Under the pieces are notes generated by a model that was not told where the DNA came from, did not search any database, and saw nothing but the letters and a program-made list of their open reading frames with translations. A stretch of 64,000 nt of DNA from Fidelibacterota bacterium (lineage in GTDB: Bacteria > Fidelibacterota > Marinisomatia > Marinisomatales > TCS55): contig JAYEFG010000010.1 in assembly GCA_034658595.1 (NCBI GenBank), positions 353-64,352 of the forward strand, written 5' to 3'. Shown in pieces: positions 1-64,000 of this stretch. The translations under genes were made by a program, and so were the position numbers. Position 1 is the first letter of the stretch. The number at the start of each line of letters is the position of its first letter.

Positions 1-63
1 AACTTGCCATTGTGACTGAAGAAGAATTCATTGATACCTATTAATGGTCAAAAGGAGAAAAAA

Positions 64-1173
64 ATGATTATGAAAAGAATATTAACAATTACCTCTGTCT
101 TGGCCATGTTCGCCAGTTTATCTGTGGCACAGAATACAGATGCTGGCGCAAGGGAGTCATTGCTTTATCGCGCAGAATCGGGTGCCCGTAATGGTACAGC
201 TGGTGCTTCACAGTTATTAATACCGCAAGGAGCAAAATACCTTACTGGAGGCGGCGCAGTTGCCACGGCAACTGGTGTAGGTGCAACTTATTGGAATCCG
301 GCCGGTATAGCGCGAACGAAAAGTGCAGTTGAAACTTCATTTTCCAATCGATCTTACTTCGCGGATATGTCTGTATCTTTTTTTGGCGCCGTATTAAAAG
401 CTGGGAGTAATGCCTTTGGTGTGAATGTTCGTACAGTTGATATTGGTGAAATTGATGTAACAACGGTGTTTTCACCGGATGGTACAGGAGAAAAATTTAC
501 TCCTTCGAACTTCACAGCTGGATTTACATATGCACGGATGATGTCTAGCCGTACAAGTATGGGAATGTCACTAAACCTTACCAGTGAAGGATTTAGACGT
601 GTTCAGGGCAGAGGCATTACAATTGATGCCGGTGTTCAATACTCTGACTTTCTCAATGTCTCTGGCTTGGACGTCGGAGTTGTAGTAAGAAATTTTGGTC
701 AACCAATGCGATATGATGGTTCAGGCCTATTGCGCGATGCTATTGCACTGGGCACGGATAGACAAACGACAAAATACAAAGTTGAAGCGGCAAAGTTTGA
801 CATGCCCCTTGTAATGGAAATAGGGACCAAATATAATATGAGTACTAATATTTCTTTAGCCGGTACTTATGAAGTGAACAACTTTGATCAGGATAAAATA
901 AAACTAACAGGCACATTTAACATACCGGGATTATTAGCGGTACGCACAGGATATTTATTGAATGTTCAATCTGTTGATATACAGGATAATGTTACAACTG
1001 AAAATGTAGATGAAAGCGAATCTTCCTTAGAAAATATCTTTGGTGGTCTTTCTTTTGGTGGTTCACTAAGTCTCCAACGCACCTTAGGTATCAATGCTTC
1101 GATTGATTATGCCTATATTCCTGTAAAGCACTTTGATGGTAATACAGTGTTCACATTGAACGTTGGCTTCTAA
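64..1173 (+). CDS. outer-membrane beta-barrel protein, PorV/FadL-like (T9SS-associated family suspected)
   Basis: ORF 31-1173. Preferred start is ATG 64 (AGGAG at 53-57), giving signal peptide MIMKRILTITSVLAMFASLSVAQ. The block GASQLLIPQGAKYLTGGGAVATATGVGATYWNPAGIA resembles the conserved N-terminal block of PorV-type barrels. Alternating strand pattern and aromatic C-terminus (...LNVGF). Confidence 0.5.
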   Translation: MIMKRILTITSVLAMFASLSVAQNTDAGARESLLYRAESGARNGTAGASQLLIPQGAKYLTGGGAVATATGVGATYWNPAGIARTKSAVETSFSNRSYFADMSVSFFGAVLKAGSNAFGVNVRTVDIGEIDVTTVFSPDGTGEKFTPSNFTAGFTYARMMSSRTSMGMSLNLTSEGFRRVQGRGITIDAGVQYSDFLNVSGLDVGVVVRNFGQPMRYDGSGLLRDAIALGTDRQTTKYKVEAAKFDMPLVMEIGTKYNMSTNISLAGTYEVNNFDQDKIKLTGTFNIPGLLAVRTGYLLNVQSVDIQDNVTTENVDESESSLENIFGGLSFGGSLSLQRTLGINASIDYAYIPVKHFDGNTVFTLNVGF

Positions 1174-25444: not shown

Positions 25445-25566
25445 ACTAGTGTAATATCCCGCCAGTTGCTTTGCGCTTAGCGCTTTTTATCGCCCCACAA
25501 GGCAATTCCCCGAAAATTTTCAACTACAAAGATTTTTTAAAAGAATTTAATTGAGGTTACTTCTAT

Positions 25567-26814
25567 ATGAATGTTAATGAATTACAAAAACTAAAAATCA
25601 AAGAATTGGCAGATCTTGCTGCGACACTGAATATCGAAAGTTATTCAGGGTTGAATAAGCAGGAGCTTATCGTCAAAATCCTCGAAGCCCAGAATGAAAA
25701 AGAAGGTGGTGTAACCGCTGAAGGTGTCCTGGAGGTTCTCAAGGAAGGATATGGATTTTTACGCAGTCCGGATTTTAACTACCTTCCCGGGCCCGATGAT
25801 ATTTATGTGAGCCCTTCACAAATTAAACGCTTCGGTTTGAGGACCGGCCATGAGGTTTTTGGCCAGATTCGTCAGCCGAAGTCTAAGGAACGTTTTTATG
25901 CCCTCCTTAAAGTGGATAAAGTAAATGGCCACGATCCGGCGGAGATGAAACGGGCGATCTTATTTGATAATCTTACACCCCTTTATCCAGAAGAAAAATT
26001 TAACCTTGAGGTGAACCCTAAAGACTTATCTACCCGCATTATGGATCTTATCTCTCCGGTTGGGAAAGGCCAGCGGGGCCTCATCGTTGCCCAGCCAAAA
26101 ACGGGAAAGACCGTTTTGCTGCAAAAAGTGGCCAATGCTATTTCTAAAAACCACCCTAAGGTAAGACTGATTATTCTCCTGATTGATGAACGCCCGGAAG
26201 AAGTGACAGATATGAAGCGTAATGTAAAGGCCGAGGTTATTAGTTCCACCTTTGATGAACCGCCGGAACGACATGTTGCTGTAGCTGAGATGGTTATCCA
26301 TAAAGCCCGCCGGATGGTAGAGTTTGGCGATGATGTTGTTATCCTGTTAGACAGTATTACCCGTTTGGGACGGGCCCATAATGCTGTAATTCCTCACAGT
26401 GGAAAAATTCTTTCTGGTGGTGTGGACTCCAATGCCCTGAAAAAACCGAAACAATTTTTCGGGGCCGCCCGGAATACGGAAGAAAGCGGCAGCTTAACTA
26501 TTATCGCCACTGCACTGGTTGAAACTGGCAGCCGCATGGATGAAGTTATTTTTGAAGAATTTAAAGGAACCGGTAATATGGAACTTGTTTTGGACCGAAA
26601 ACTCAGCGATCGTCGAATTTATCCATCATTTGACTTAATTCGATCCGGCACAAGGAAAGAAGAACTTCTCTTGGATAAGAAAGTATTAGCTCGCATGTGG
26701 ATCCTCAGAAAACTGCTCAATGAAATGAATGTTATGGAAGCAATGGAGTTTATACAGGACAGAATGCGGCGAACAAAGACCAATGAAGAATTTATGGAAA
26801 CAATGAGCCAATAA
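25567..26814 (+). CDS. rho: transcription termination factor Rho
   Basis: Rho N-terminal domain, RNA-binding GYGFLR, Walker A AQPKTGKT and the C-terminal RecA fold. Confidence 0.97.
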
Positions 26815-50661: not shown

Positions 50662-53686
<3,025 letters not shown>

Positions 53687-53714
53687 GAGAAGAAAGTGAT
53701 TGATCGTTAAGACC

Positions 53715-54137
53715 TCAAGTTGAAGTAAAGGTGATACACTTTTTATACCAATGGTCGTAGGTGATCTGTTTGCGGATCATATAATCTGCTGTACAACGGG
53801 CATTGGCTTCACAAACATCGGCGCCCTTTCCGCGGATGTCATAGTGCATCACCACCACATATTTTTTAAAGGGCTTTTTGGCATATTGGCCCATATTGGC
53901 CAGGGCGGAAACGGCAAAGCTTAAATCTTCGCTGGAACGATTTCGATCCGCTAAAATTTCAACATGATAAACCCGTTGACCGCCATCCATGTAGATTTTG
54001 AGTCCAGTTAATTTGGGCGCCGTATGATTCCGCGCAAAATATTGAGGCGTCATGGCGGCGATTTGCCTATCTGAAAACTTTGGCTTGGCGGACACGATGG
54101 ATGATATGGCCAAAAGTAATGTTATAAACAGTTTCAT
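53715..54137 (-). CDS. secreted hypothetical protein
   Basis: 140 aa with signal peptide MKLFITLLLAISSIVSA and a CEANARC pair plus one further Cys. Confidence 0.45.
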   Translation of the reverse strand: MKLFITLLLAISSIVSAKPKFSDRQIAAMTPQYFARNHTAPKLTGLKIYMDGGQRVYHVEILADRNRSSEDLSFAVSALANMGQYAKKPFKKYVVVMHYDIRGKGADVCEANARCTADYMIRKQITYDHWYKKCITFTST

Positions 54138-55147
54138 GTTATTTTCCTTTTTTTGGAGATGAAAATTAAACCAATCAGTATGACCAAAGCACTGATGAGG
54201 ATTGCCATTTGAACTCTTTTTGGATGATATATGATGGAGGCTGCTTCTATAACATAATCATCATTGAGAAAATCTTCATAATTGAAAGACCACCATAAGG
54301 TATCACTCAATATAGAATCAGCGTTGGAGCGGGTGATAGCACCGGGGAGAATTCCGGCAAATTTAAATGTATCATCATTAAGTCCCACCGTCACATTGGC
54401 TTCATCGATGTAAGGGTGCATGGCATTCATACAAGCCACTGAGAAATTTTTAGGAAGGTCATCTGAAAAAGGTTTAAAGTTGATTTCAATCAAATCCCGG
54501 GGAAGGAAAAATATATCTTCCCTGTCATCATCTTTGTCCATTACGCCGAATAAATTGCCTTCTTCTTCCGCTTTATGAAATACACCACGGAAATGATTCA
54601 GGATGCGCTCTTTTAATAAATCATCAATGGACATTTCTTCCTTTAGATCATCCATCCCCATGCGTAAACAGTACATAATGATTTCTGTTTCAACAATTTT
54701 GTCGGTGGAGTCGTTGCCAGCATCCCGCATGGATTTGGCCAATAATGGGTATTTTTGACTTACGCGCCTTCCTTTAAATATTTGGTTGAGGGAATAGGTT
54801 GTGGAAAACAGCCCATCGTTTTTTATAATAGTAACCGGATGTCGTTGGGGTGCAGGGCCATCAGTTTCCGGATGAAAAACAGTTGGTCCTTTTAAAACAG
54901 CTTCGGAATTGATTATGTGAACGGTTTCATTGCTGTCTTCTTTTCCCTTTTCAATAATTTCTGAAGCCCATGGGTTTTTCATGGGAAGCGGAAAATCATC
55001 GTCGAAAACATCCTTTTTATCGCCTTCAGTATGAAATTTCATATGGTATTTCCCATCAGGGAATACACGGACGGTAATTAATGTTTCAACACACTGCATC
55101 GAAAAGAAAGCAGTGAAAAATAAGAGAATGATTTTGAGCTTCCGCAT
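54134..55147 (-). CDS. hypothetical envelope protein with N-terminal signal and C-terminal TM anchor
   Basis: 337 aa with MRKLKIILLFFTAFFSMQC at the N-terminus and a C-terminal helix MAILISALVILIGLIFISKKRK. Confidence 0.45.
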   Translation of the reverse strand: MRKLKIILLFFTAFFSMQCVETLITVRVFPDGKYHMKFHTEGDKKDVFDDDFPLPMKNPWASEIIEKGKEDSNETVHIINSEAVLKGPTVFHPETDGPAPQRHPVTIIKNDGLFSTTYSLNQIFKGRRVSQKYPLLAKSMRDAGNDSTDKIVETEIIMYCLRMGMDDLKEEMSIDDLLKERILNHFRGVFHKAEEEGNLFGVMDKDDDREDIFFLPRDLIEINFKPFSDDLPKNFSVACMNAMHPYIDEANVTVGLNDDTFKFAGILPGAITRSNADSILSDTLWWSFNYEDFLNDDYVIEAASIIYHPKRVQMAILISALVILIGLIFISKKRKIT

Positions 55148-55230: not shown

Positions 55231-56355
55231 TTAAAACGTCATCCGTAAGGATGTCTGCAATGTGCGGATGATAAGTAGCGCATCGGCACCGGTCACATCA
55301 CCAGTTGGCTCAAACCGGCCTGTGATCATATCGGCCTGCATAATGCCTCGCTCAGCACAAAGGGCCATGGCGTTGTAAGCAAAATGGCTACTGGGCACAT
55401 CACTGAAACGACTTTGGGCTTCGCCGAAATAACGTGTTTCAAGGCTTTCATCCCGGGTTGCAACAACCAAAAGCCGCTGGACGGCCATTGCGTAGGTGGC
55501 ACGGTTGATATTATCATCGGGATAAAAATTGCCGTCAGGTTCAACATCCATGATGCCATAGCGGATCATATCTTTGATCCATGTTTCGGCCCAGTGGCCA
55601 TTGGCATCATTGGGGGTAGTTATTGTTGCTGTTTGTGCTGCCTGCCCCGGTGTTTGAAATCCGGCATTTTGTGCCGGCATCCGGTCAAACAAGATACCAA
55701 TTTTTAATTCTTCAGCGAACAAGACCGCCAGATCCGAGCGATTGATCCTTTCTTTCAATGCCACCTTTTTACCGACGGGAGTTCCGGGCATGGCACGGAC
55801 AATTTTTTGAGCCAATTTCCACTTCGAATCCGCTTTACCCGCATAATCGCCCCGTTTATTTACCACTTTACGGAAATAGCTTTCTGCTTCGTCAAATTGA
55901 TAATTATAGAGGTGGGCGACACCGAACCAATATTGGGCACCTTCATGTTCTTTATCCCGTTTCAGTGCTTTTTCAAGATGAGACTCGGCCCGCTTGAACC
56001 ACTTTTTCTCCGAATCTCGCAGAGTGATCCAAACCTGGGCGCTTAGGGAAAGTGCTTCCGGATCCTTGGATCCGCGGCTGGCACATTTGGAAGCAAAATC
56101 TTTTGCCTGTTTGTTGTTCCCAAGATGGGCATTGGCCAGGCCAAGTCCACCGTATCCCAGGGCAAACTTTTTATCCAGGTCAACCGATCGCTGGAAGGAC
56201 TTGATCGCCTGCTGATAATCGCCGTTATTGATGGCGCGCATACCGGCTTTATAATGGTATTCAGGTGTATCCATATCACTTTCGGGCGGCGCTGCGCAGG
56301 AAGCAAGCAATAATAGGGTAAAAACAGTTAGTAATGATCGATGTTTTTTAAGCAT
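55231..56355 (-). CDS. lipoprotein with TPR repeats and two C-terminal SLH (S-layer homology) domains
   Basis: Start moved to ATG 56355 (MLKKHRSLLTVFTLLLLASC). TPR-like helices in the N-terminal half. SLH-like blocks GHWAETWIKDMIRYGIMDVEPDGNFYPDDNINRATYAMAV and FSDVPSSHFAYNAMALCAERGIMQ...FEPTGDVTGADALLII. Confidence 0.6.
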   Translation of the reverse strand: MLKKHRSLLTVFTLLLLASCAAPPESDMDTPEYHYKAGMRAINNGDYQQAIKSFQRSVDLDKKFALGYGGLGLANAHLGNNKQAKDFASKCASRGSKDPEALSLSAQVWITLRDSEKKWFKRAESHLEKALKRDKEHEGAQYWFGVAHLYNYQFDEAESYFRKVVNKRGDYAGKADSKWKLAQKIVRAMPGTPVGKKVALKERINRSDLAVLFAEELKIGILFDRMPAQNAGFQTPGQAAQTATITTPNDANGHWAETWIKDMIRYGIMDVEPDGNFYPDDNINRATYAMAVQRLLVVATRDESLETRYFGEAQSRFSDVPSSHFAYNAMALCAERGIMQADMITGRFEPTGDVTGADALLIIRTLQTSLRMTF

Positions 56356-56524
56356 AATGAACTCCTCGAAAAGATTATTCGCCATGAATATACCTTTTTT
56401 CGAACATAAATGGAAATAACATGAATTGGCTGATTTGATTCAGACCACACTATTACTCAATAATTATTGCTTCACGGCGTTGAATTGGATAATTTACCCC
56501 GTAACTGTGCACAAATAAAATCGT

Positions 56525-57646
56525 ATGGATATGTTAAAAATCTTATATAAAATTATTGGAATCTTATGCCTGGTGGGTTTAACTGCCCTACAGGGACAAG
56601 CCCTCACAGCCACCGGAACCGGTTATGGCCTTACCAAGGATGCCGCCACAGAGCAGGCAAAACGGGATGCCGTTGAACAGGGTCTGGGGGCCTACATGAC
56701 CTCAACAACAACCGTAACCGCCACCTCGATTGAAGATAATATTTATTCCAAAGCACAAGGGTTTGTGAAATCTTTCAAGGTTACCAGAGAAAGCCAGGGA
56801 CCTGATGGGAACTGGGAAATCACCATTGAAGCCCAAGTCACGGATATGATTGACCAGGTTATGGCGGATGAAGCAGCCCTGCAAACCCTGCTCAATGCCA
56901 TGAATCGCCCCAGGATCATTTTTATGGTGCGTGAAGAAAATTTGATTGATAACACTCCCACGGATTTCGCTGAAACAAAGCTGTTAGCCATGTTCTACGA
57001 AAAAGGCTTTGACGTGGTGGACCGCCAGATGGTCCAAGCATTGAAAGGTAATGCAGATTATAGCCAGGCCTTGGCAGGGAATGTATCCGCCGCCGCCAAA
57101 ATCGCCAGCCAGTTGGGTGCAGAAGTAATTGTAATTGGTACGGCAAAAATATCTTCCGGCGGTAAAATTTATAATATGACCGCGGGTCAAGCAGATTTAA
57201 ATGCTAAGATCATCCGGGCTGACACGGGTGAAATTCTTGCTGTTGTGCCCCAGGCTCGAGGGAAAAAACCCCATATTTCTGCAACGACAGCCGGTATTAA
57301 TGCGGTAAATCAGGCGGCAGAAGTTTTGGGGAAAAATATTATTTCCCAATTGGTGATCAAGTGGAGCACCCAACAAGCAAACTTTATAAAAGTTTATATT
57401 GTGCTGAAAGGCGCTGATTTTATGTCCTACATGACATTTGAATCTTTCTTAAAAGCGCAGACTGTTTCCGGAATTCGGAATGCCTACGCTAAAAGTCTCA
57501 ATGACGGCGTGGCAGAATATGAAGTGGAATTTGAAGGGAAATCCCAAGCCCTGGCTATGGGTCTTTCCCAAACCAGTCCCGATGGGTTGAATTTTAGAGT
57601 CACCGGTCTAACCGGGAATCGTATCACAGCAGAAGTTGTACAATGA
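56525..57646 (+). CDS. FlgT-like periplasmic protein (LPP20-like N-domain plus TolB-N/CsgG-like alpha/beta domain)
   Basis: Signal peptide. N-block TATGTGYGLTKDAATEQAKRDAVEQGLGAY. Middle block RPRIIFMVRE...FDVVDRQMVQAL...EVIVIGTAKIS. Confidence 0.45.
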   Translation: MDMLKILYKIIGILCLVGLTALQGQALTATGTGYGLTKDAATEQAKRDAVEQGLGAYMTSTTTVTATSIEDNIYSKAQGFVKSFKVTRESQGPDGNWEITIEAQVTDMIDQVMADEAALQTLLNAMNRPRIIFMVREENLIDNTPTDFAETKLLAMFYEKGFDVVDRQMVQALKGNADYSQALAGNVSAAAKIASQLGAEVIVIGTAKISSGGKIYNMTAGQADLNAKIIRADTGEILAVVPQARGKKPHISATTAGINAVNQAAEVLGKNIISQLVIKWSTQQANFIKVYIVLKGADFMSYMTFESFLKAQTVSGIRNAYAKSLNDGVAEYEVEFEGKSQALAMGLSQTSPDGLNFRVTGLTGNRITAEVVQ

Positions 57647-58470
57647 TGAGGCATCCTATGAAAAAATTAATCGGATTATCCGCAATCGTATTCAGTATGG
57701 CCTTTTCCCAAGGCGTGGTTACACAACTGGATAAAGGCAGCATCAACTATTCAGAACAAACCATTGCCGCCATCGGCATTGGATTTGTCCCCCAAAATGC
57801 CATCAATGCAGGCCAAGCACGGCGCATGGCTTTGAGGATTGCCAAACAAGACGCATTGCGGCAACTGATTGAAATTGTTAATGGTGTAACCCTAACCAGC
57901 GAAACAACCATGAGTGGTGCAATGGTAGATGATGTGATTAATACCAAAGTTAGGGGATTTATCCGTGGTGCCCGTCAGGTAGGAGCACCAAAATATTTGA
58001 GTGACACATCTGTCGAAGTGGAATATTCTGTTCCCATGAGTGGTATTTCTGATATAATGCTTCCGCCAATAACGATTGCTGCGGCCCAGCCCGGTGCGCC
58101 GACAGAGGCGGCCACAACACCAACAACCGGGGGAATTACCGGTGTGATCATTGATGCCCGCGGACTGAAAGCCCGACCAGCCATGGCACCAAGAATTTTG
58201 GACCAAAACGGCAATGCGATTTACGGTCCCGGGACCTACAGTCGTGAATACGCAGTAACCAATGGTGTTGCCGGTTATTCAAAATCCATTGAAGCGGCCC
58301 AGAAGGATCCGCGGGTTTTGGGGAATCCCTTGGTGGTTAAAGGTGTTTCAACTTCCGGTAAAAACAGGACCGATGTTGTCATCAGCAATGCAGATGTTTC
58401 AAAAATTGATGCGGCCAATCGCAGTTATAATGTACTGAAGGATTGCCGTGTATTGATCCTGCTGGATTAG
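57643..58470 (+). CDS. LPP20 family (FlgP-like) protein
   Basis: Signal peptide. The block IAAIGIGFVPQNAINAGQARRMALRIAKQDALRQLIEIVNGV is typical of LPP20-type lipoproteins. Second domain GVIIDARGLKARPAMAPRILDQNGNAIYG. 4-nt overlap with the upstream gene. Confidence 0.55.
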   Translation: MMRHPMKKLIGLSAIVFSMAFSQGVVTQLDKGSINYSEQTIAAIGIGFVPQNAINAGQARRMALRIAKQDALRQLIEIVNGVTLTSETTMSGAMVDDVINTKVRGFIRGARQVGAPKYLSDTSVEVEYSVPMSGISDIMLPPITIAAAQPGAPTEAATTPTTGGITGVIIDARGLKARPAMAPRILDQNGNAIYGPGTYSREYAVTNGVAGYSKSIEAAQKDPRVLGNPLVVKGVSTSGKNRTDVVISNADVSKIDAANRSYNVLKDCRVLILLD

Positions 58471-58503
58471 ACAGATTTATAGCAACTAAATAGAAGGGTA
58501 AAG

Positions 58504-59160
58504 ATGCGGAATAGCATGAGATTCAAATCAATCTCATTTATAATTATTGGATTATTTACAGGATTGCTTATGGCGCAGGAAGAAGCCGTAAACAAGGCCA
58601 TGGAAAAGGACAATAGAGACCTTAAGGCGGGGGATATTGCCCCATCCTGGGCCTTAATGTATGCTCCCGGTCAGTTTGAATTCCTGAAAAACTGGTCTGA
58701 AGAAGATGGGAAAAGACTCAGAAAGTTCACCACCCAGCCGGACAGAAACGCCGTACTTATGAGTTTCTTTGCAACTTGGTGTCAACCTTGTATGAAGGAA
58801 TTGCCCCTACTTGAAGAAGTATACCAGCAATATAAAGATGAACGCATCAAATTCTTTTTGGTGGATATTACGGAAGCCACCCGCACTATTCCCGGAAATG
58901 AGAATTTACCAAAGGCAGGTCCCTTCCTGCGTGAGAAAGGGGTAACCATGCAGATTTTATATGATACAAGGGGGACAGTTATGAAGCGCTATAATGCACA
59001 AACATTACCTCGATTATTTATTATGGACGGCAACCGCAAAATCACCTTAACCCGGCGGGGATTCCATGAAGGTGAAGAAGAAATATTTAAAAAAGATTTA
59101 TCAGTCGAAATTGAACGACTTTTAGCGGATTTACCTCCGCCAAAAAATGAAACAAAGTAA
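58504..59160 (+). CDS. TlpA/ResA-like periplasmic thiol:disulfide oxidoreductase
   Basis: Membrane/signal anchor, thioredoxin fold with ATWCQPC (CxxC). Confidence 0.8.
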   Translation: MRNSMRFKSISFIIIGLFTGLLMAQEEAVNKAMEKDNRDLKAGDIAPSWALMYAPGQFEFLKNWSEEDGKRLRKFTTQPDRNAVLMSFFATWCQPCMKELPLLEEVYQQYKDERIKFFLVDITEATRTIPGNENLPKAGPFLREKGVTMQILYDTRGTVMKRYNAQTLPRLFIMDGNRKITLTRRGFHEGEEEIFKKDLSVEIERLLADLPPPKNETK

Positions 59161-59227
59161 GTTGTGAGCCAGCCCACAGGGAAATACCTTGTGGATTTGT
59201 TAAACTTTAGTTAGAAGTGAGCCAATT

Positions 59228-59956
59228 ATGAGGGTATTAAAGAGATCCACCATTTGGTTTGTGGTGTTGAGTATTGTTTGGGGGCAAACACCGGGAACCC
59301 AATCCGTGATAAATGCAGAAACGTCTGCCCAGTTGGCGGAAGGCAAACAAACCGTCGCTGTCTTGGACTTTGAGGGCCGGGGTATATCCCAGATGGAAGC
59401 AGCCACACTCACAGACCGTCTTATGAGTGAAATGGTTTCAACCGATGCGGTCATAATGGTAGAGCGCAACCAGATGAATGAAATCCTGGAGGAACAGGGA
59501 CTGCAGCAAGCGGGCTGTACCTCTGCAGAATGTGCCGCTGAAGTGGGGGCCCTGCTGGGCGTACAGAGCATGATTTCCGGTTCCTTCGGTAAATTGGGTA
59601 ATACCTATACGGTAGATGCCAAAATGTTTTCCGTGGAAACGGGTCAGACCACGCGCAGTGTAAGCAAGACCTATAAGGGGGAGGTGGATGGATTATTGCC
59701 CATCATTGAAGTTGTTGCTTGGGAACTGGTGGGGCTCCAGGCGCCGGCAGACCTATTAGCCAGGGCAGGTCAGGCGGCACCTCAAGTTGCAGAGGTGAAG
59801 CCCAAGAAAGAAAGAAAACCCATGAGCAAAGGGGCCAAGCGCACCATGTGGACTGTATTGATTTTAGGCGGCGGCCTTGGGGGCGCTTATGCTGCGGGCT
59901 TGTTTGATGCTAAACCGGTTCCATTGCCTGAGCCACCAACCCTGCCGGAGGGTTAA
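59228..59956 (+). CDS. CsgG/FlgO/LpoB-like periplasmic domain protein with C-terminal TM anchor
   Basis: Signal peptide, VAVLDFEGRG...VERNQMNEILEEQGLQQAGCTSAECAAEVG block, Pro/Lys linker, C-terminal helix MWTVLILGGGLGGAYAAGLF. Confidence 0.45.
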   Translation: MRVLKRSTIWFVVLSIVWGQTPGTQSVINAETSAQLAEGKQTVAVLDFEGRGISQMEAATLTDRLMSEMVSTDAVIMVERNQMNEILEEQGLQQAGCTSAECAAEVGALLGVQSMISGSFGKLGNTYTVDAKMFSVETGQTTRSVSKTYKGEVDGLLPIIEVVAWELVGLQAPADLLARAGQAAPQVAEVKPKKERKPMSKGAKRTMWTVLILGGGLGGAYAAGLFDAKPVPLPEPPTLPEG

Positions 59957-59959
59957 GCC

Positions 59960-62900
59960 ATGATGAAAAAGATATTATTTTTCATCACTATTTTCGGGTT
60001 TTCCACTTTGCTCAGTCAGTCCGTTGTCAGTCTGGATGGTTCCAACGACTACTTAACCACAACCGAAACTACCGGTACAAAGCTTGAAGGTGATTTTACC
60101 ATTTCCGGCTGGGTATTCCCCAAGGGTGATGCGACTCAGCAGGTATTTCATAACGAACTTTTTGAAATCCAGTATCAGGGGTCTTATTATAGACAGTTTA
60201 GGATCTACCCAGGCGGTTACAGTACAACTTGGGGGGAAGCTTCGATCAATGAATGGCACCATATTGCGGTAACCCGTAGCAGCCACACTAACGCCTATGA
60301 TACCCTCTATGTATATGTGGATGGCAAACAGAGTCTCATGTTTGCAAGGGATCAATCTTCAACAACAACTTTTGATGGTACTATGTATTTGGGCCGGGAC
60401 CCTGATTATGGTGAATACTTCAGGGGTTTTATGGATGAATTTGCCATATGGAATACTGTATTGGATTCTAACTCCGTAAAAACATTGTATAATAACGGCG
60501 TTCCCAATACTATCAGCGCAAAGCCAGGCAATATTGTATCTTACTGGCCAATGAATGATGGTACCGGTACGACTGCAACCAATAATATAGGAAGTAGTCC
60601 CGACCTATCTCTTCAAGGGGCTACCTGGTCCACTTTTACCCAGTCCGCCAAGCCCGAACTGCTCGCCGATATACGCAGTGGTTATAGTGGTTCTTATCCC
60701 AGGAATCTTCGGGAATATAACGGCAAACTTTATTTTGTTGCTAACGATGGTGTTAAAGGCGATGAATTATGGGTCTATAGCCCAAAGGACAGTACAACCA
60801 CGCGGATAACGGATATTGCGTCGGGATCCAATTCCGGCTTGTTATATGAATCCGCTTTGATTGAATATAAAGGAAAACTCTATTTTACGGGATACGAAAG
60901 TAATTACGGGGCGGAATTATATTCCTACGACGGTAGCAGTGTCACACGAGTCACGGATATTAATTCTGGTGTGAGATCATCTTATGCAAAATATCTCTCC
61001 GTGCTCAACGATACACTGTATTTTGTCTCAACGACTAATACATACGGATATGAGTGGTATTCCTACGATGGCTCAAGCGTTACACGTAGGACTGATATCC
61101 GCGCAGGTGCCTCTGAAGGTGTCTATATCTATGGTAATGCTAAAGTATATAAAGATAAAATATATTTTCCCGGTTATGATTCCGATAAAGGGGTAGAACT
61201 CTTTTCCTACGATCGAACCAACGGTGCTCAGCTTGTTAAAGACATCTATAATGGGAGCTCGGGCTCTTATCCCAATAAGTTAACAGTATTTGACAAAAAA
61301 TTATATTTAGTAGCATCATATATGGCGGCAGGATCAGCTGCACCTGATAATGGGATGGAAGCCGCCGGCTCTGAATCCGGGATGAGCCATGATAATAAAT
61401 TATTAAAATATGATGGAACAGATCTGACCGTGATTGACTTGGGATCTTCTGTTTCCTATTTTTCTCTTTACGGCGATTCCAGTGTTTATAATGACAAGCT
61501 CTATTTTCAGGCATATACTCCCAGTTATGGTTCCGAATTATGGTCTTATGACGAAACTAATGGGGCCCAGATGGTGGGTGATTCGATTTACCCCGGGTCC
61601 AATGGGTCAAGCCCTAATTTTTTAAGAACTTTTGATAATAAGCTCTATTTCCAGGCCAATGATGGTTCAGGCTCCTGGGGTGGAAGCAGCGGTGAATTAT
61701 GGTATTATGATGGCACTGCTTTTGGTCGTGCCGGTGATATATATAATGGTAAAAGTGGTGCGTACCCCCAAAATCTATTTGCGACTAATGATGCCCTTTA
61801 TTTTGCGGCCAATGATGGATCAAAAGGAAGTGAATTATGGGCAATTAGGCTTTCGGACCCAACTCCCACGATCACCAGTATTACCTCGACTACATCTGAT
61901 GGGACCTATAAAATCGGTGATGCAATCAACATTACCGTCAATTTTTCGGAGGCGGTATCCTTATCAATTGGCGGATCGTTAACGGTGACCCTGGAAACAG
62001 GCACAACCGATCGCACGGTCAGCATTTCTTCCATCAGCAATGCCACCAGCGCCTCCGGTACTTACACGGTTCAATCTGGAGATTTAAGTTCTGATCTGAC
62101 CGCAAATTCAGTCAGCGTATCTGGTTCACTTTCAGATGCCTCCAGCCAGGCCATGGATAGTTTTACCATTGGTTCCAATTTGGCCGGTTCTTCCGCCTTG
62201 GTTATCGATGGTGTCCTGCCCACAATTGCCAGTGTAAAAAGCACCAGCGATAACGCAACTTATTCTGCCGACTCCAAAATCAATATTACGGTGAATTTTT
62301 CAGAGGCGGTGAGCATCTCAAGCAGCGGTACCTTAACGGTTACCCTGGAAACGGGGGACCCGGATCGAGATGTCACCATTACCGATATTTCCAGTACAAC
62401 CGCTGCTAAAGGGACTTATACCGTACAATCTGGAGATGCCAGTGATGACTTGGATGTGAAATCTATCGAGCTTTCCAGCGGTGCCACACTAAAAGATGCT
62501 GCTGGGAATTCAATGAGCTCTTTATCCATTCATGCTGATAGCAGTCTGTCCGATTTTAATAACATAAAAATAAATACGACCAAACCGGGGACACCTACAA
62601 ACCTCGTAGCAAAAAACAGGTATGGTGGCATCGGCTTAAAATGGTATAAAGAATCCAGTGCCGCCAAATATTATGTATATCGAAGCGGAGATAATGCAAC
62701 ATTTGAAAAACTTTCCACAGAACCTACAGACACGACTTTTATCGATGCATTAACAGCGGGTTCCAAATATTATTACTATGTCACGGCGGTGAATTCAGCC
62801 GGTACTGCGGGGGATACCTCAAAACATGTATTTGGCTATGCTACCAGAATTTGGTGGGTGGATGTCACAAATGGAAAGGATGAAACTCGTTATGGTGTAA

Positions 62901-64000
62901 GTGCCGATTCATCATTTAAAACCATTGAACAGGCCGTCAAAACCAATTCCAGTTTGGTTTCAGGTGATACCATCTATGTGAAGCCCAGTATTACCAGTAC
63001 CAACAAAACTAAGTACACGGGTTATTATGATTTTGGTGGTAATAAAGGTGATATCGATTTGGGCCACAGCAAAGATTTTATTTTGAAAAGTACGGCGGGC
63101 GCTGACAGCACCATTTTAAACGCAGAAGGAAATGGCCGACATTTTAATTTTTGGAGGGGTCAGACCAATGCCACCAATATTATTGGATTTACCTTTTTCA
63201 ATGGGGAGGTAAAAGATAAATGGCCTGGCGGCGGCTCTATGGTGATTAGTGAGTCTACTAATATAAAATTCCAAGATTGTGTATTTGACAGCAACCGCGT
63301 TACGGATAATAATAATGGCGGCGCAGTTGCTATTACGAATCAGGCCGTGCCAACTTTTACGGGTTGTACCTTTATTAATAACTTTGCGACGGATACAGAT
63401 GGTGGTGCCAGTGGTGGTGCTGTTTTTATTTGGTCGCCCAATTCTGTGGACGATTTGAAAGCTGCCATTAATTTTGAGCAGTGTAAGTTCATTGGGAATT
63501 TTGTGAAGGTAAGCGGTTACGCTCGCGGGGGTGCCATAGGGGCAGGAAAATTTACGAATATTAGCAATTGTCTGTTTATTAAAAATGGCGCAATTAGCGG
63601 GTTTGGTGCTGGTTCAAATGACTGGGGAGAGGCTCAGGGTGGGGCAATAGTTAGTTCGGGGGGATATAATACAACCGGTACTATTGTTGTAGTCTCTAAT
63701 TCCACTTTTGACCGGAATTATTTGGATGTACGCACCAAAAACGGCCAATTGATGGGTACAGAAGTTTTTTATGGGTGGCAGAATGATAATCAAATCAAAA
63801 AATTATATCTATTTAACACAATCATAACCGGGTCTTACCGTAAGCTCAATGGGGAAGATTATATTACTACTAACGAGAGCGACAAAATATTCTATTCACA
63901 CGGAAGTAGTAATAAGGCCAATGTAGATTACTCAGCCATCGAAGGTAGCTCAGACCAATCCTGGGCGGATGATAATGTTTTTGACATTGTCCCTGTCTAT
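59960..64000 (+). CDS. giant multidomain surface protein (LamG, 8x ELWxxDG-type blades, 2x Ig-like repeats, FN3, right-handed beta-helix), 3' partial
   Basis: The frame is open from ATG 59960 to the window end (1347 codons, no stop, hence absent from the ORF track). Signal peptide MMKKILFFITIFGFSTLLSQ. Domains by motif are given in the finding. Confidence 0.8.
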   Translation, partial: MMKKILFFITIFGFSTLLSQSVVSLDGSNDYLTTTETTGTKLEGDFTISGWVFPKGDATQQVFHNELFEIQYQGSYYRQFRIYPGGYSTTWGEASINEWHHIAVTRSSHTNAYDTLYVYVDGKQSLMFARDQSSTTTFDGTMYLGRDPDYGEYFRGFMDEFAIWNTVLDSNSVKTLYNNGVPNTISAKPGNIVSYWPMNDGTGTTATNNIGSSPDLSLQGATWSTFTQSAKPELLADIRSGYSGSYPRNLREYNGKLYFVANDGVKGDELWVYSPKDSTTTRITDIASGSNSGLLYESALIEYKGKLYFTGYESNYGAELYSYDGSSVTRVTDINSGVRSSYAKYLSVLNDTLYFVSTTNTYGYEWYSYDGSSVTRRTDIRAGASEGVYIYGNAKVYKDKIYFPGYDSDKGVELFSYDRTNGAQLVKDIYNGSSGSYPNKLTVFDKKLYLVASYMAAGSAAPDNGMEAAGSESGMSHDNKLLKYDGTDLTVIDLGSSVSYFSLYGDSSVYNDKLYFQAYTPSYGSELWSYDETNGAQMVGDSIYPGSNGSSPNFLRTFDNKLYFQANDGSGSWGGSSGELWYYDGTAFGRAGDIYNGKSGAYPQNLFATNDALYFAANDGSKGSELWAIRLSDPTPTITSITSTTSDGTYKIGDAINITVNFSEAVSLSIGGSLTVTLETGTTDRTVSISSISNATSASGTYTVQSGDLSSDLTANSVSVSGSLSDASSQAMDSFTIGSNLAGSSALVIDGVLPTIASVKSTSDNATYSADSKINITVNFSEAVSISSSGTLTVTLETGDPDRDVTITDISSTTAAKGTYTVQSGDASDDLDVKSIELSSGATLKDAAGNSMSSLSIHADSSLSDFNNIKINTTKPGTPTNLVAKNRYGGIGLKWYKESSAAKYYVYRSGDNATFEKLSTEPTDTTFIDALTAGSKYYYYVTAVNSAGTAGDTSKHVFGYATRIWWVDVTNGKDETRYGVSADSSFKTIEQAVKTNSSLVSGDTIYVKPSITSTNKTKYTGYYDFGGNKGDIDLGHSKDFILKSTAGADSTILNAEGNGRHFNFWRGQTNATNIIGFTFFNGEVKDKWPGGGSMVISESTNIKFQDCVFDSNRVTDNNNGGAVAITNQAVPTFTGCTFINNFATDTDGGASGGAVFIWSPNSVDDLKAAINFEQCKFIGNFVKVSGYARGGAIGAGKFTNISNCLFIKNGAISGFGAGSNDWGEAQGGAIVSSGGYNTTGTIVVVSNSTFDRNYLDVRTKNGQLMGTEVFYGWQNDNQIKKLYLFNTIITGSYRKLNGEDYITTNESDKIFYSHGSSNKANVDYSAIEGSSDQSWADDNVFDIVPVY
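60655..61860 (+). repeat. eight tandem ELWxxDG-type repeats (coding, beta-propeller-like)
   Basis: Recurring KLYF...G.ELW.YDG units: GDELWVYS, GAELYSYDG, GYEWYSYDG, GVELFSYD, NKLLKYDG, GSELWSYDE, GELWYYDG, GSELWAI. Confidence 0.7.
61865..62580 (+). repeat. two tandem ~118-aa Ig-like repeats (coding)
   Basis: PTITSITSTTSDGTYKIGDAINITVNFSEAVSLS...LTVTLETG...GTYTVQSGD repeats as PTIASVKSTSDNATYSADSKINITVNFSEAVSIS...LTVTLETG...GTYTVQSGD. Confidence 0.75.

Follow-up and report, generated by a model that had tools for sequence, protein, structure and literature searches.

A conserved envelope gene cluster with FlgT-like and LPP20/FlgP-like proteins, set apart from flagellar genes and linked to giant surface proteins in marine SAR406 bacteria

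A 64,000-nucleotide (nt) stretch of DNA from a marine member of the Marinimicrobia (SAR406/Fidelibacterota), hereafter the window, carries four co-directional open reading frames (ORFs), P1 to P4, flanked on one side by the divergent gene of a lipoprotein with TPR and SLH repeats (TPR-SLH) and on the other by the gene of a giant surface protein. Comparison with related loci shows that P1 to P4, TPR-SLH, a FecR-domain protein and a CHASE2-domain nucleotide cyclase belong to a single envelope gene cluster that is conserved and non-flagellar. A core of P1, P2 and TPR-SLH occurs in at least seven phyla, and the giant is linked to P4 only, and only in marine Marinimicrobia. We hold these statements on composition and homology to be highly probable. 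The parts of the cluster are recognizable; their assembly and context, which span many phyla, are uncharacterized, and the literature that we searched contained no description of a combined FlgT/LPP20/TPR-SLH/FecR cluster or of non-flagellar FlgT-like proteins.

The original prediction had described P1 to P4 as a periplasmic module of FlgT-, LPP20-, thioredoxin- and FlgO/CsgG-like proteins. Its four ORFs, their coordinates, the 4-nt overlap, the gaps of 33, 67 and 3 nt and the ORF of more than 1346 residues (aa) behind them are exact (Table 1), and all four peptide blocks that it quoted, including WCQPC and CTSAEC, were recovered in the window proteins. Orthologues of P1 (61 to 94% identity) were found in 77 genome loci, nearly all labeled Marinimicrobia, Neomarinimicrobiota or Fidelibacterota. 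Virtually every one of these loci that is sufficiently long keeps the order TPR-SLH (divergent), P1, P2, thioredoxin and P4, and in essentially all of them the TPR-SLH gene adjoins P1. In a library of 1.84 billion cluster representatives, a P1-family profile matched 4568 proteins (E ≤ 1e-3), of which most are full length, with 360 to 410 aa. The orthologues, the preserved gene order and the size of the P1 family thus show that P1 to P4 are genuine conserved genes and exclude chance ORFs. Four clearly Marinimicrobia-type loci (L029, L063, L066 and L224) lie on contigs labeled Flavobacteriaceae, Thaumarchaeota, Legionellales and Opitutia, probably because the metagenome-assembled genomes (MAGs) were mis-binned or mislabeled.

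Direct homologue lists for P1 and P2 gave close Marinimicrobia only (best 120). Distant relatives were therefore collected by a search of a cluster-representative library for P1, and by a search seeded with a deltaproteobacterial P2 for P2. As the resulting alignment of 61 distant P1 relatives was too diverse to serve as a seed, a subset of 13 sequences was used, which yielded 78 loci from Thermodesulfobacteriota and other Deltaproteobacteria, Nitrospinota, Nitrospirota, Calditrichia, Zixibacteria and Myxococcota (MAGs). A P2 orthologue was present in 55 of the 78 (E down to 1e-59) and the TPR-SLH protein in 42, encoded between P2 and P1 (E down to 1e-73); a FecR-domain protein was found in 32 and a CsgG-like gene in 30. 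The typical order outside Marinimicrobia is P2, TPR-SLH, P1, lipoprotein, CsgG. Locus L087 illustrates the arrangement, with a Pfam series of LPP20, TPR and SLH, FlgT_N, a GNA1162-like lipoprotein (72 bits), full-length CsgG (117 bits), PEGA and FecR; in a Calditrichia locus, the corresponding position is taken by CsgG (129 bits) and FecR. The full-length CsgG of L087 and L142 covers positions 5 to 208 of the 210 in the model.

The FecR protein of locus L064, used as a query in turn, led to 80 further loci, nearly all from Marinimicrobia. FecR could be mapped in 72 of them and is followed by the CHASE2 cyclase in almost all, and several share contigs with P1 loci; in Marinimicrobia the pair lies downstream of the other cluster genes. 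A deep branch, represented by the complete-chromosome MAG CP070656.1, has one contiguous series (P1, TPR-SLH, P2, FecR, CHASE2 cyclase) followed by a 1397-aa type IX secretion system (T9SS) protein; this locus has no thioredoxin and no P4. As a side observation, one FecR-like partner (L182, 9998-10759) matches the models of the leptospiral proteins Lsa33, LipL45 and Lsa19, with scores far below the family cut-offs. Distant relatives of parts of the module may thus be found among several abundant lipoproteins of Leptospira that have been studied as adhesins.

Flagellar genes were absent from the window according to the original prediction, and we could extend this statement well beyond it. By using 22 flagellar and chemotaxis proteins of Escherichia coli (NC_000913.3) as phmmer queries against all ORFs of the window and of 159 related loci from at least seven phyla (2.15 Mb), we found no flagellar structural gene. 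The leftovers were one weak match to a FliI-family ATPase in the window and one CheW in L139. The module is thus never linked to flagellar genes in the searched neighborhoods; the search covers these neighborhoods, not whole genomes, and says nothing of flagella in the organism. A non-motile diderm is the sole representative of the phylum in culture (PMC11652737), and flagellar assembly genes have been reported in some Marinimicrobia MAGs (10.1101/2020.06.03.132969). The 415-aa ORF behind the FliI match (window positions 25555-26811, plus strand) was rejected as a flagellar ATPase, as the match is weak (E 3.7e-12) and stands alone among housekeeping genes. From its size and isolation, it is most likely a different protein of the RecA/F1-type ATPase superfamily, for instance Rho. 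Ten other window proteins are housekeeping enzymes and peptidases according to Pfam.

The secreted P1 protein was predicted by AlphaFold2 to have three domains (predicted local distance difference test [pLDDT], 70.6; Table 1). Its best Foldseek match in the PDB was 8z5n_0, a 352-residue chain of a Vibrio LPHT-ring entry (E 3.3e-10), followed by the crystal structure of FlgT, 3w1e (E 8.4e-10), both over about 390 to 400 aligned columns, so that the model would place P1 in the three-domain fold of FlgT (N, M and C). The middle domain also matched GNA1162, CsgG, CT253, Cj1090c, PelC and LptE. By sequence, Pfam FlgT_N was matched by 53 of the 61 distant family members (best E 1.2e-12), and the L087 orthologue reached 37.3 bits against a cut-off of 28.8; the window P1 gave no match to FlgT_N (PF16548) at E ≤ 1. 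FlgT_M and FlgT_C were detected by Pfam neither in P1 nor in the 61 family members. A comparison of the P1 profile with PDB sequences did not retrieve 3w1e at E ≤ 10 and returned chance-level matches only, such as ribosomal protein L6. NCBIfam LipL46 was matched distantly (E 8e-10), far below the family cut-off. Since Vibrio FlgT is the best structural match and the wider family matches FlgT_N, the description of P1 as a FlgT-like, three-domain protein is supported.

P2, also secreted, has an LPP20/FlgP-like domain and a second domain that resembles domain D2 of Treponema Tp0624. Its best sequence match in the PDB was FlgP of Campylobacter jejuni (9hmf_C, E 2.3e-6), and T. pallidum Tp0624 (5jir) was matched with an E value of 0.0018. 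The AlphaFold2 model (pLDDT 65.0) aligned with D1 and D2 of Tp0624 over 272 columns (5jir, Foldseek E 8e-11) and with FlgP of the Campylobacter scaffold (9hmf_A, E 5e-5). Deltaproteobacterial orthologues of about 41% identity carry PF02169, pass the LPP20 cut-off and are named LPP20 family lipoprotein at NCBI, and the orthologue of L087 scored 32.2 bits. The LPP20/FlgP-like nature of P2 that had been proposed is supported by sequence and fold, as well as by the Pfam scores of its orthologues. The N-terminal domains of P1 and P2 are, as judged by profile comparison, homologous (hhalign probability, 97.5%). In P2 and its orthologues, inspection of the alignment showed a signal peptide devoid of a lipobox cysteine (MKKLIGLSAIVFSMAFSQG...).

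The TPR-SLH protein matched Pfam SLH in two stretches with 57.4 bits (gathering cut-off, 20.8), in addition to TPR_2, TPR_16 and TPR_19, and its orthologue in L087 scored 31.3 bits for SLH; the protein thus has genuine SLH repeats. When compared with P2 and P4, it is the only one with a lipobox. SLH domains bind wall polymers, and the protein is presumed to be a tether to the cell wall. The original prediction had presented it as a divergent neighbor. It is present as described, and from its recurrence in other phyla it is more than that, namely, a core component of the module.

P3 has the active site WCQPC and scored above the cut-offs of three Pfam families (AhpC-TSA, 48 bits; Redoxin, 46 bits; and Thioredoxin, 38 bits), as expected from its description as a TlpA-like thioredoxin. 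NCBIfam ResA (E 1e-17) and TlpA (E 1.7e-7) were matched under their equivalog cut-offs, and its sequence accordingly defines a general class only, that of periplasmic TlpA/ResA-type thioredoxin-fold proteins. In this cluster a thioredoxin gene is found in Marinimicrobia and Zixibacteria only. The idea that it represents a private oxidoreductase for the CxxxxC cysteine pair of P4 was rejected, as the thioredoxin is retained in a Marinimicrobia lineage that has no P4 (L042, L046 and L065).

P4 proved to be a more truncated protein than its description as CsgG/FlgO/LpoB-type had implied. It passed the cut-offs of Pfam CsgG (35.4 bits; cut-off 20.8), over model positions 2 to 97 of 210 only, and of Pfam LpoB (PF13036, 23.2 bits; cut-off 22.3), with a score far below the cut-off of the NCBIfam LpoB equivalog; it did not match Pfam FlgO (PF17680). 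The CsgG and LpoB parts of the description thus have Pfam support, the former for half of the domain, and the FlgO part has none. After the domain come a basic linker rich in Pro, Ala and Lys, a hydrophobic C-terminal helix rich in Gly and a tail of the form LPEPPxLPE; the linker, hydrophobic anchor and PEPP tail recur in the orthologues whose C terminus was recovered. In LpoB, the domain sits on an N-terminally lipid-anchored linker; P4 has the reverse layout, in which the domain precedes the linker and the hydrophobic anchor is at the C terminus. A lipobox cysteine is missing from P4 (MRVLKRSTIWFVVLSIVWGQTPG), and the sole cysteines of the protein are those of the CxxxxC pair (SGCTSAECAAEVG), which is present in every listed full-length Marinimicrobia orthologue. 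An exact look-up of P4 returned no record, and its profile gave nothing meaningful against PDB sequences. The elements at its C terminus (59830-59956) are arranged like those of a PEP-CTERM-type sorting signal in reverse; none of the NCBIfam models for sorting signals matched there.

The giant protein encoded downstream of P4 matched Laminin_G_3 (76 bits) and ELWxxDGT_rpt (E 1.7e-60, at least seven repeats), and it also has Ig-like repeats, fn3 and a beta-helix. The surface protein expected at this place is thus confirmed as an ORF, and a large ORF follows P4 in 33 of the 38 informative Marinimicrobia loci, mostly at a spacing of -4 to +60 nt; in 31 of these 33 it starts less than 100 nt from the P4 stop codon. 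In the other five loci, small toxin-antitoxin-like genes follow P4, and then the contig ends. Giants homologous to that of the window (62 to 67% identity) come after P4 in L004, L005 and L008, and in 14 loci a P4-like gene overlaps the downstream ORF, of 879 to 1523 aa, by 4 nt. In L064, P4 is followed by a complete 1415-aa protein with LamG, BACON and a C-terminal FlgD_ig (31.8 against a cut-off of 27), then by the FecR protein and a CHASE2 adenylate/guanylate cyclase.

As the C terminus of the window giant lies beyond the end of the window, the evidence on its tail comes from relatives. A T9SS type-A-like tail (...SGVYFY...KMVLVK) is found on 37 of the 38 large proteins that precede FecR; the TIGR04183 cut-off of 23 was passed in L229 (28.2) and just missed in L182 (19.6). 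In UBA6630, on the contig that also carries L005, the ELW-type giant ends with ...ATGVYFYHAMIRNDQGKVVLNKTKKMIFLK, the T9SS-type tail, and that of TCS55 has such a tail behind a frameshift. These close relatives suggest that the full-length giant has about 4000 aa and a T9SS type-A C-terminal sorting tail. A role of the module in exporting the giant through a CsgG-like channel, considered in the original prediction, is therefore unlikely: P4 has half of the domain and no lipobox, and the giants carry T9SS sorting tails. P4 was likewise rejected as a CsgG pore, because the half domain is devoid of the barrel-forming hairpins.

In close relatives, a second P4 paralogue and a second large T9SS-tailed protein, overlapping by 4 nt, lie between the first giant and FecR (Table 1). 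TCS55, whose P1 is 87% identical to that of the window and whose giant is of the ELW type, has the order P4, giant of about 4000 aa, second P4 (E 8e-76), 1338-aa protein, FecR and cyclase; this order was joined from loci of the same contig, and the overlap of L008 and L182 was confirmed. A second cassette of P4 and a large protein is thus probably encoded just past the end of the window. One Marinimicrobia lineage, with TPR-SLH co-directional (L042, L046, L060 and L065), has neither P4 nor the giant and has kept the thioredoxin, and the 78 loci of other phyla have no giant gene after the core. The co-occurrence of the module with giants in relatives, raised as a question by the original prediction, therefore applies to P4 in marine Marinimicrobia and not to the core of other phyla. 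In the simplest history, P1, P2, TPR-SLH, FecR and, in this phylum, the CHASE2 cyclase are ancestral; marine SAR406 bacteria added the rest, i.e., the thioredoxin and one or two cassettes of P4 and a giant T9SS protein, between P2/thioredoxin and FecR.

Other features of these loci deserve mention. One Marinimicrobia lineage has a divergent P4-like gene for 206 to 215 aa (L215, 9360-10007, and L194, L210, L213, L216, L218 and L219; E about 1e-32) that overlaps FecR by 4 nt rather than preceding a large protein. Small genes are found between P4 and the giant or near the cluster in L050 (13359-13928), L070 (14515-14838) and L078 (3323-3898), and further ones 3′ of P4 in L011, L018, L027 and L059. 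Their N-terminal sequences indicate nucleotidyltransferase/HEPN-type pairs, a GIY-YIG-like gene and REP-type (Y1) transposase-like genes, which suggests a local insertion hotspot. A promoter and terminator scan of the window, otherwise uninformative, detected a weak terminator-like hairpin of 8 bp with a poor T-tract between P3 and P4 (59174-59194, plus strand) and no terminator-like element between P4 and the giant gene, a hint that the latter two may form an expression unit of their own. On the strand of TPR-SLH, between this gene and ligA, lie three hypothetical genes (53258-55147, minus strand) for proteins of 337, 140 and 142 aa, whose N termini resemble signal peptides. Their position is conserved across Marinimicrobia loci; they were not found in the loci of other phyla and have no significant Pfam match, and they may be lineage-specific additions to the module.

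Table 1. Cluster genes of the window, domains of P1 and the additional cassette of close relatives
Feature	Position	Strand	Details
TPR + SLH lipoprotein	55231..56385	-	384 aa, lipobox LLASC, divergent from P1
P1, FlgT-like secreted protein	56525..57646	+	373 aa
P1 N-domain	residues ~26-106		FlgT_N/LPP20-like
P1 middle domain	residues ~130-286		CsgG/TolB-N/GNA1162-type alpha/beta
P1 C-domain	residues ~288-372		beta-alpha-beta-beta-alpha-beta-beta
P2, LPP20/FlgP-like secreted protein	57643..58470	+	275 aa; 4-nt overlap with P1
P3, TlpA/ResA-type thioredoxin	58504..59160	+	218 aa; 33 nt after P2
P4, LpoB/CsgG-N-type protein	59228..59956	+	242 aa; 67 nt after P3
Giant surface protein, 5′ part	59960..64000	+	open-ended ORF, >1346 aa; 3 nt after P4
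Second P4 paralogue and large protein, close relatives	L182 5242-10001; L181 5971-10001; L188 5278-10001		P4 paralogue E about 1e-75; protein of 1082-1338 aa

How might these proteins work together? CsgG and PelC are ring-forming oligomers. In Vibrio, concentric rings lie under the outer membrane, a C26 ring of FlgT and C58 rings of FlgP and FlgO (10.64898/2025.12.02.691832), and FlgP forms the basal disk of Campylobacter (PDB 9hmf). Our favored interpretation, to which we give a little less than an even chance, is that the cluster encodes a platform, located under the outer membrane and tethered to the wall, that is connected with cyclic-nucleotide signaling and has been coupled by marine SAR406 bacteria to giant adhesins. 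P1 and P2, both with the domain from which flagellar H-rings and basal disks are built, would oligomerize into the platform, with the CsgG-family partner where present, and the TPR-SLH lipoprotein would tie it to the cell wall. Via the FecR-like protein of the periplasm, the state of the platform, and with it that of the envelope or surface, would reach the CHASE2 sensor domain of the cyclase, whose output would be cyclic AMP or cyclic GMP. Operons that pair a secreted FecR-domain protein with a CHASE2 sensor are known, for instance a biofilm-regulating operon of Burkholderia (PMC5192318). P4, viewed as an LpoB-like head that contains a disulfide and is carried by a long linker with an anchor at the C terminus, would probably dock or handle its cotranslated giant adhesin at the platform, the giant itself leaving the cell through the T9SS and not through a CsgG pore, and the thioredoxin would probably service a periplasmic cysteine of the module or of its cargo. 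The detailed mechanism of ring and signaling is more doubtful than the interpretation as a whole, and we put it forward tentatively.

A number of observations weigh against this interpretation. A ring or platform would follow from homology only. The AlphaFold2 models of P1 and P2 have moderate confidence, and their TM-scores to FlgT and Tp0624 are low (0.32 to 0.37, the P1 model reaching only 0.32 with FlgT), the equivalence of the C-domain of P1 being uncertain. We read the low scores as the effect of differing relative domain orientations in both models, together with model quality in the case of P1. Two scores of the window proteins themselves are below the cut-offs, that of P2 for Pfam LPP20 (13.5 bits; cut-off 25.9) and a weak match of the P1 middle domain to Pfam FlgO (18 bits; cut-off 22.6; E 0.003). 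Unlike FlgP and FlgO, P2 and P4 have no lipobox, and the topology of P4 is odd, with a basic stretch on the periplasmic side of the hydrophobic helix. FecR and the CHASE2 cyclase lie outside the window, past whose 3′ end their genes would be expected from relatives, and linkage of the cyclase outside Marinimicrobia is limited, with 11 of the 78 loci, mostly of Nitrospirota. Finally, the giant genes differ by lineage (ELW, FG-GAP and beta-helix types), and toxin-antitoxin and transposase insertions occur at their site, which could partly be a hotspot.

Other explanations must be weighed against the platform. Campylobacter flgP is unlinked to most flagellar genes, and one may thus ask whether P1, P2 and P4 are ordinary flgT, flgP and flgO genes of a flagellated bacterium that happen to lie away from the others; FlgT and FlgP are indeed their best structural and sequence matches, and the report of flagellar assembly genes in Marinimicrobia MAGs goes in the same direction. 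We consider this scarcely credible, given the phmmer result for the window and its 159 related loci, the missing lipoboxes of P2 and P4, the presence of the module in Myxococcota MAGs and the non-motility of the sole cultured member of the phylum. The constant partners of the module are instead TPR-SLH, FecR, the CHASE2 cyclase, CsgG- and GNA1162-like lipoproteins and T9SS cargo. A CsgG-type exporter in the outer membrane, similar to those of curli or holdfast anchors, for the giant or for an unidentified fiber subunit is improbable too. P4 passes the CsgG cut-off, and other phyla carry the full-length CsgG (117 to 129 bits) with the GNA1162-like lipoprotein, a pairing that is widespread and of unknown function (10.1101/2021.05.19.444899). 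However, the part of CsgG that P4 retains, with a C-terminal anchor and no lipobox, would not include the barrel-forming hairpins, the giants have T9SS sorting tails, Pfam scans of L087 and L142 revealed no CsgA-, CsgE- or CsgF-like genes, and the core of P1, P2 and TPR-SLH persists without a CsgG-like gene, as in L229.

Two further explanations keep the envelope location and are unlikely rather than far-fetched, the first a shade less so than the second. The proteins might serve as a housekeeping tether or regulator of peptidoglycan synthesis (Pal/CpoB/TolB/LpoB-like), with neither ring nor signaling, next to giants that occupy a well-expressed insertion hotspot. The TPR and wall-binding domains, the TolB-N/LpoB-type domains, the conserved synteny beside ligA, the non-homology of giants between lineages and the small mobile genes (HEPN/NTase pairs, GIY-YIG and REP-type transposase) at the same site would all fit. 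Insertion at a hotspot sits badly with the repeated coupling of P4-like genes to large T9SS proteins by 4-nt overlaps, second cassettes included, and with the joint loss of P4 and the giant; moreover, FecR is linked across phyla, and the CHASE2 cyclase in all of Marinimicrobia and in the majority of Nitrospirota loci, a pattern that speaks for a sensory output and against pure structure. That output could conversely be the whole function, with P1, P2 and TPR-SLH binding ligands or wall fragments for a FecR/CHASE2 receptor and no scaffold being formed. In CP070656.1, whose arrangement is basal, FecR and the CHASE2 cyclase are contiguous with P1, TPR-SLH and P2, which agrees with such an accessory set, as do known operons of FecR-domain proteins and CHASE2 sensors with a wall-binding domain (PMC5192318). 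Against it, 67 of the 78 non-Marinimicrobia loci have the core and no CHASE2 protein within 8 kb, and the nearest solved relatives of every core domain (FlgT, FlgP, CsgG and PelC) are ring-forming oligomers.

If the platform interpretation is carried to its evolutionary consequence, the cluster could be a free-living sister of the scaffold of flagellar H-rings and basal disks, or even the source from which that scaffold evolved. It would be a wall-anchored ring machine of FlgT-, FlgP- and CsgG-type proteins under the outer membrane of many bacteria without flagella, which signals through a FecR-like relay to the CHASE2 cyclase and holds giant T9SS adhesins in SAR406. We regard this as speculative and unlikely. 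If true, particle attachment of SAR406 would be converted into a cyclic-nucleotide signal by an adhesin-holding ring. In Vibrio and Campylobacter, the torque of the flagellar motor is raised by periplasmic disks and rings that are regarded as late additions, and the conserved non-flagellar cluster is a concrete candidate for what was recruited. It also gives a context to orphan proteins, such as the D1-D2 proteins of the Tp0624 type, the leptospiral LipL46- and LipL45-like lipoproteins, the cluster of CsgG with a GNA1162-like lipoprotein and CHASE2 sensors. SAR406 is among the most abundant lineages of the deep ocean and has no marine isolate. For its ecology, a conserved locus that couples giant, fast-diversifying adhesins to an envelope module and a nucleotide cyclase is relevant to particle attachment.

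Among known systems, the Vibrio H-ring (FlgT, FlgP and FlgO) with its MotX/MotY T-ring comes closest, and the FlgP disk of Campylobacter, together with its TPR scaffold proteins, comes next. As in Vibrio, where flgT, flgO and flgP are clustered, the module genes lie together. P1 has the three-domain layout of FlgT with an FlgT_N-type N-domain, P2 has the FlgP/LPP20 domain, and the CsgG/LpoB-type domains of P4 and of the middle of P1 give weak Pfam FlgO and FlgT_M matches. The T-ring proteins MotX (Sel1/TPR-like) and MotY (OmpA-like) find a parallel in the TPR plus wall-binding partner of the module. In contrast with the Vibrio system, the module is found without flagellar context, the FlgT_N cut-off is reached by the family only, FlgT_M and FlgT_C go undetected by sequence, P2 and P4 are not lipoproteins, and P2 has a Tp0624-D2 domain in addition. 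The wall would be bound by SLH repeats in place of an OmpA-like domain, and the module is linked to FecR and the CHASE2 cyclase. With the C. jejuni basal disk (FlgP, PflA and PflB), the module shares FlgP as the best PDB sequence match of P2, and TPR proteins accompany the LPP20-family protein in both cases; it differs by the absence of nearby FlgQ, PflA, PflB and stator genes and of a lipid anchor on P2, and its disk is conjectural.

P2 aligns with D1 and D2 of Tp0624 (D1-D2-OmpA-like) over about 270 columns. About 50 D1-D2 proteins without an OmpA domain exist in other bacteria (PMC5104382). P2 similarly lacks the OmpA-like domain of Tp0624, whose own function is unknown, and the SLH lipoprotein would bind the wall in trans. 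The CsgG/HfaB channels resemble the module of the phyla other than Marinimicrobia, with its full CsgG and GNA1162-like lipoprotein, and the middle domain of P1 and P4 share their fold; in contrast, Marinimicrobia P4 has the N-terminal half only, without barrel hairpins or lipid anchor, and no curli-subunit or CsgE/F genes were seen in the Pfam scans of L087 and L142. In the sprCDBF-type operons of Bacteroidota, a giant T9SS adhesin is cotranscribed with small accessory genes and the cassettes are reiterated, as they are in the module. We found no sequence relationship with these operons, P4 being of the LpoB/CsgG-N type with a C-terminal anchor instead of a PorP/SprF beta-barrel. The signaling part is reminiscent of the “BiofilmReg” LysM-FecR protein and CHASE2 kinase of Burkholderia, with a gene for a secreted FecR protein directly 5′ of that of a CHASE2 membrane sensor and with a wall-binding domain. 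The output there is a histidine kinase, whereas in the module it is a class III nucleotide cyclase; wall binding in the module would be on a separate TPR-SLH lipoprotein, and FlgT- and LPP20-like partners have been added.

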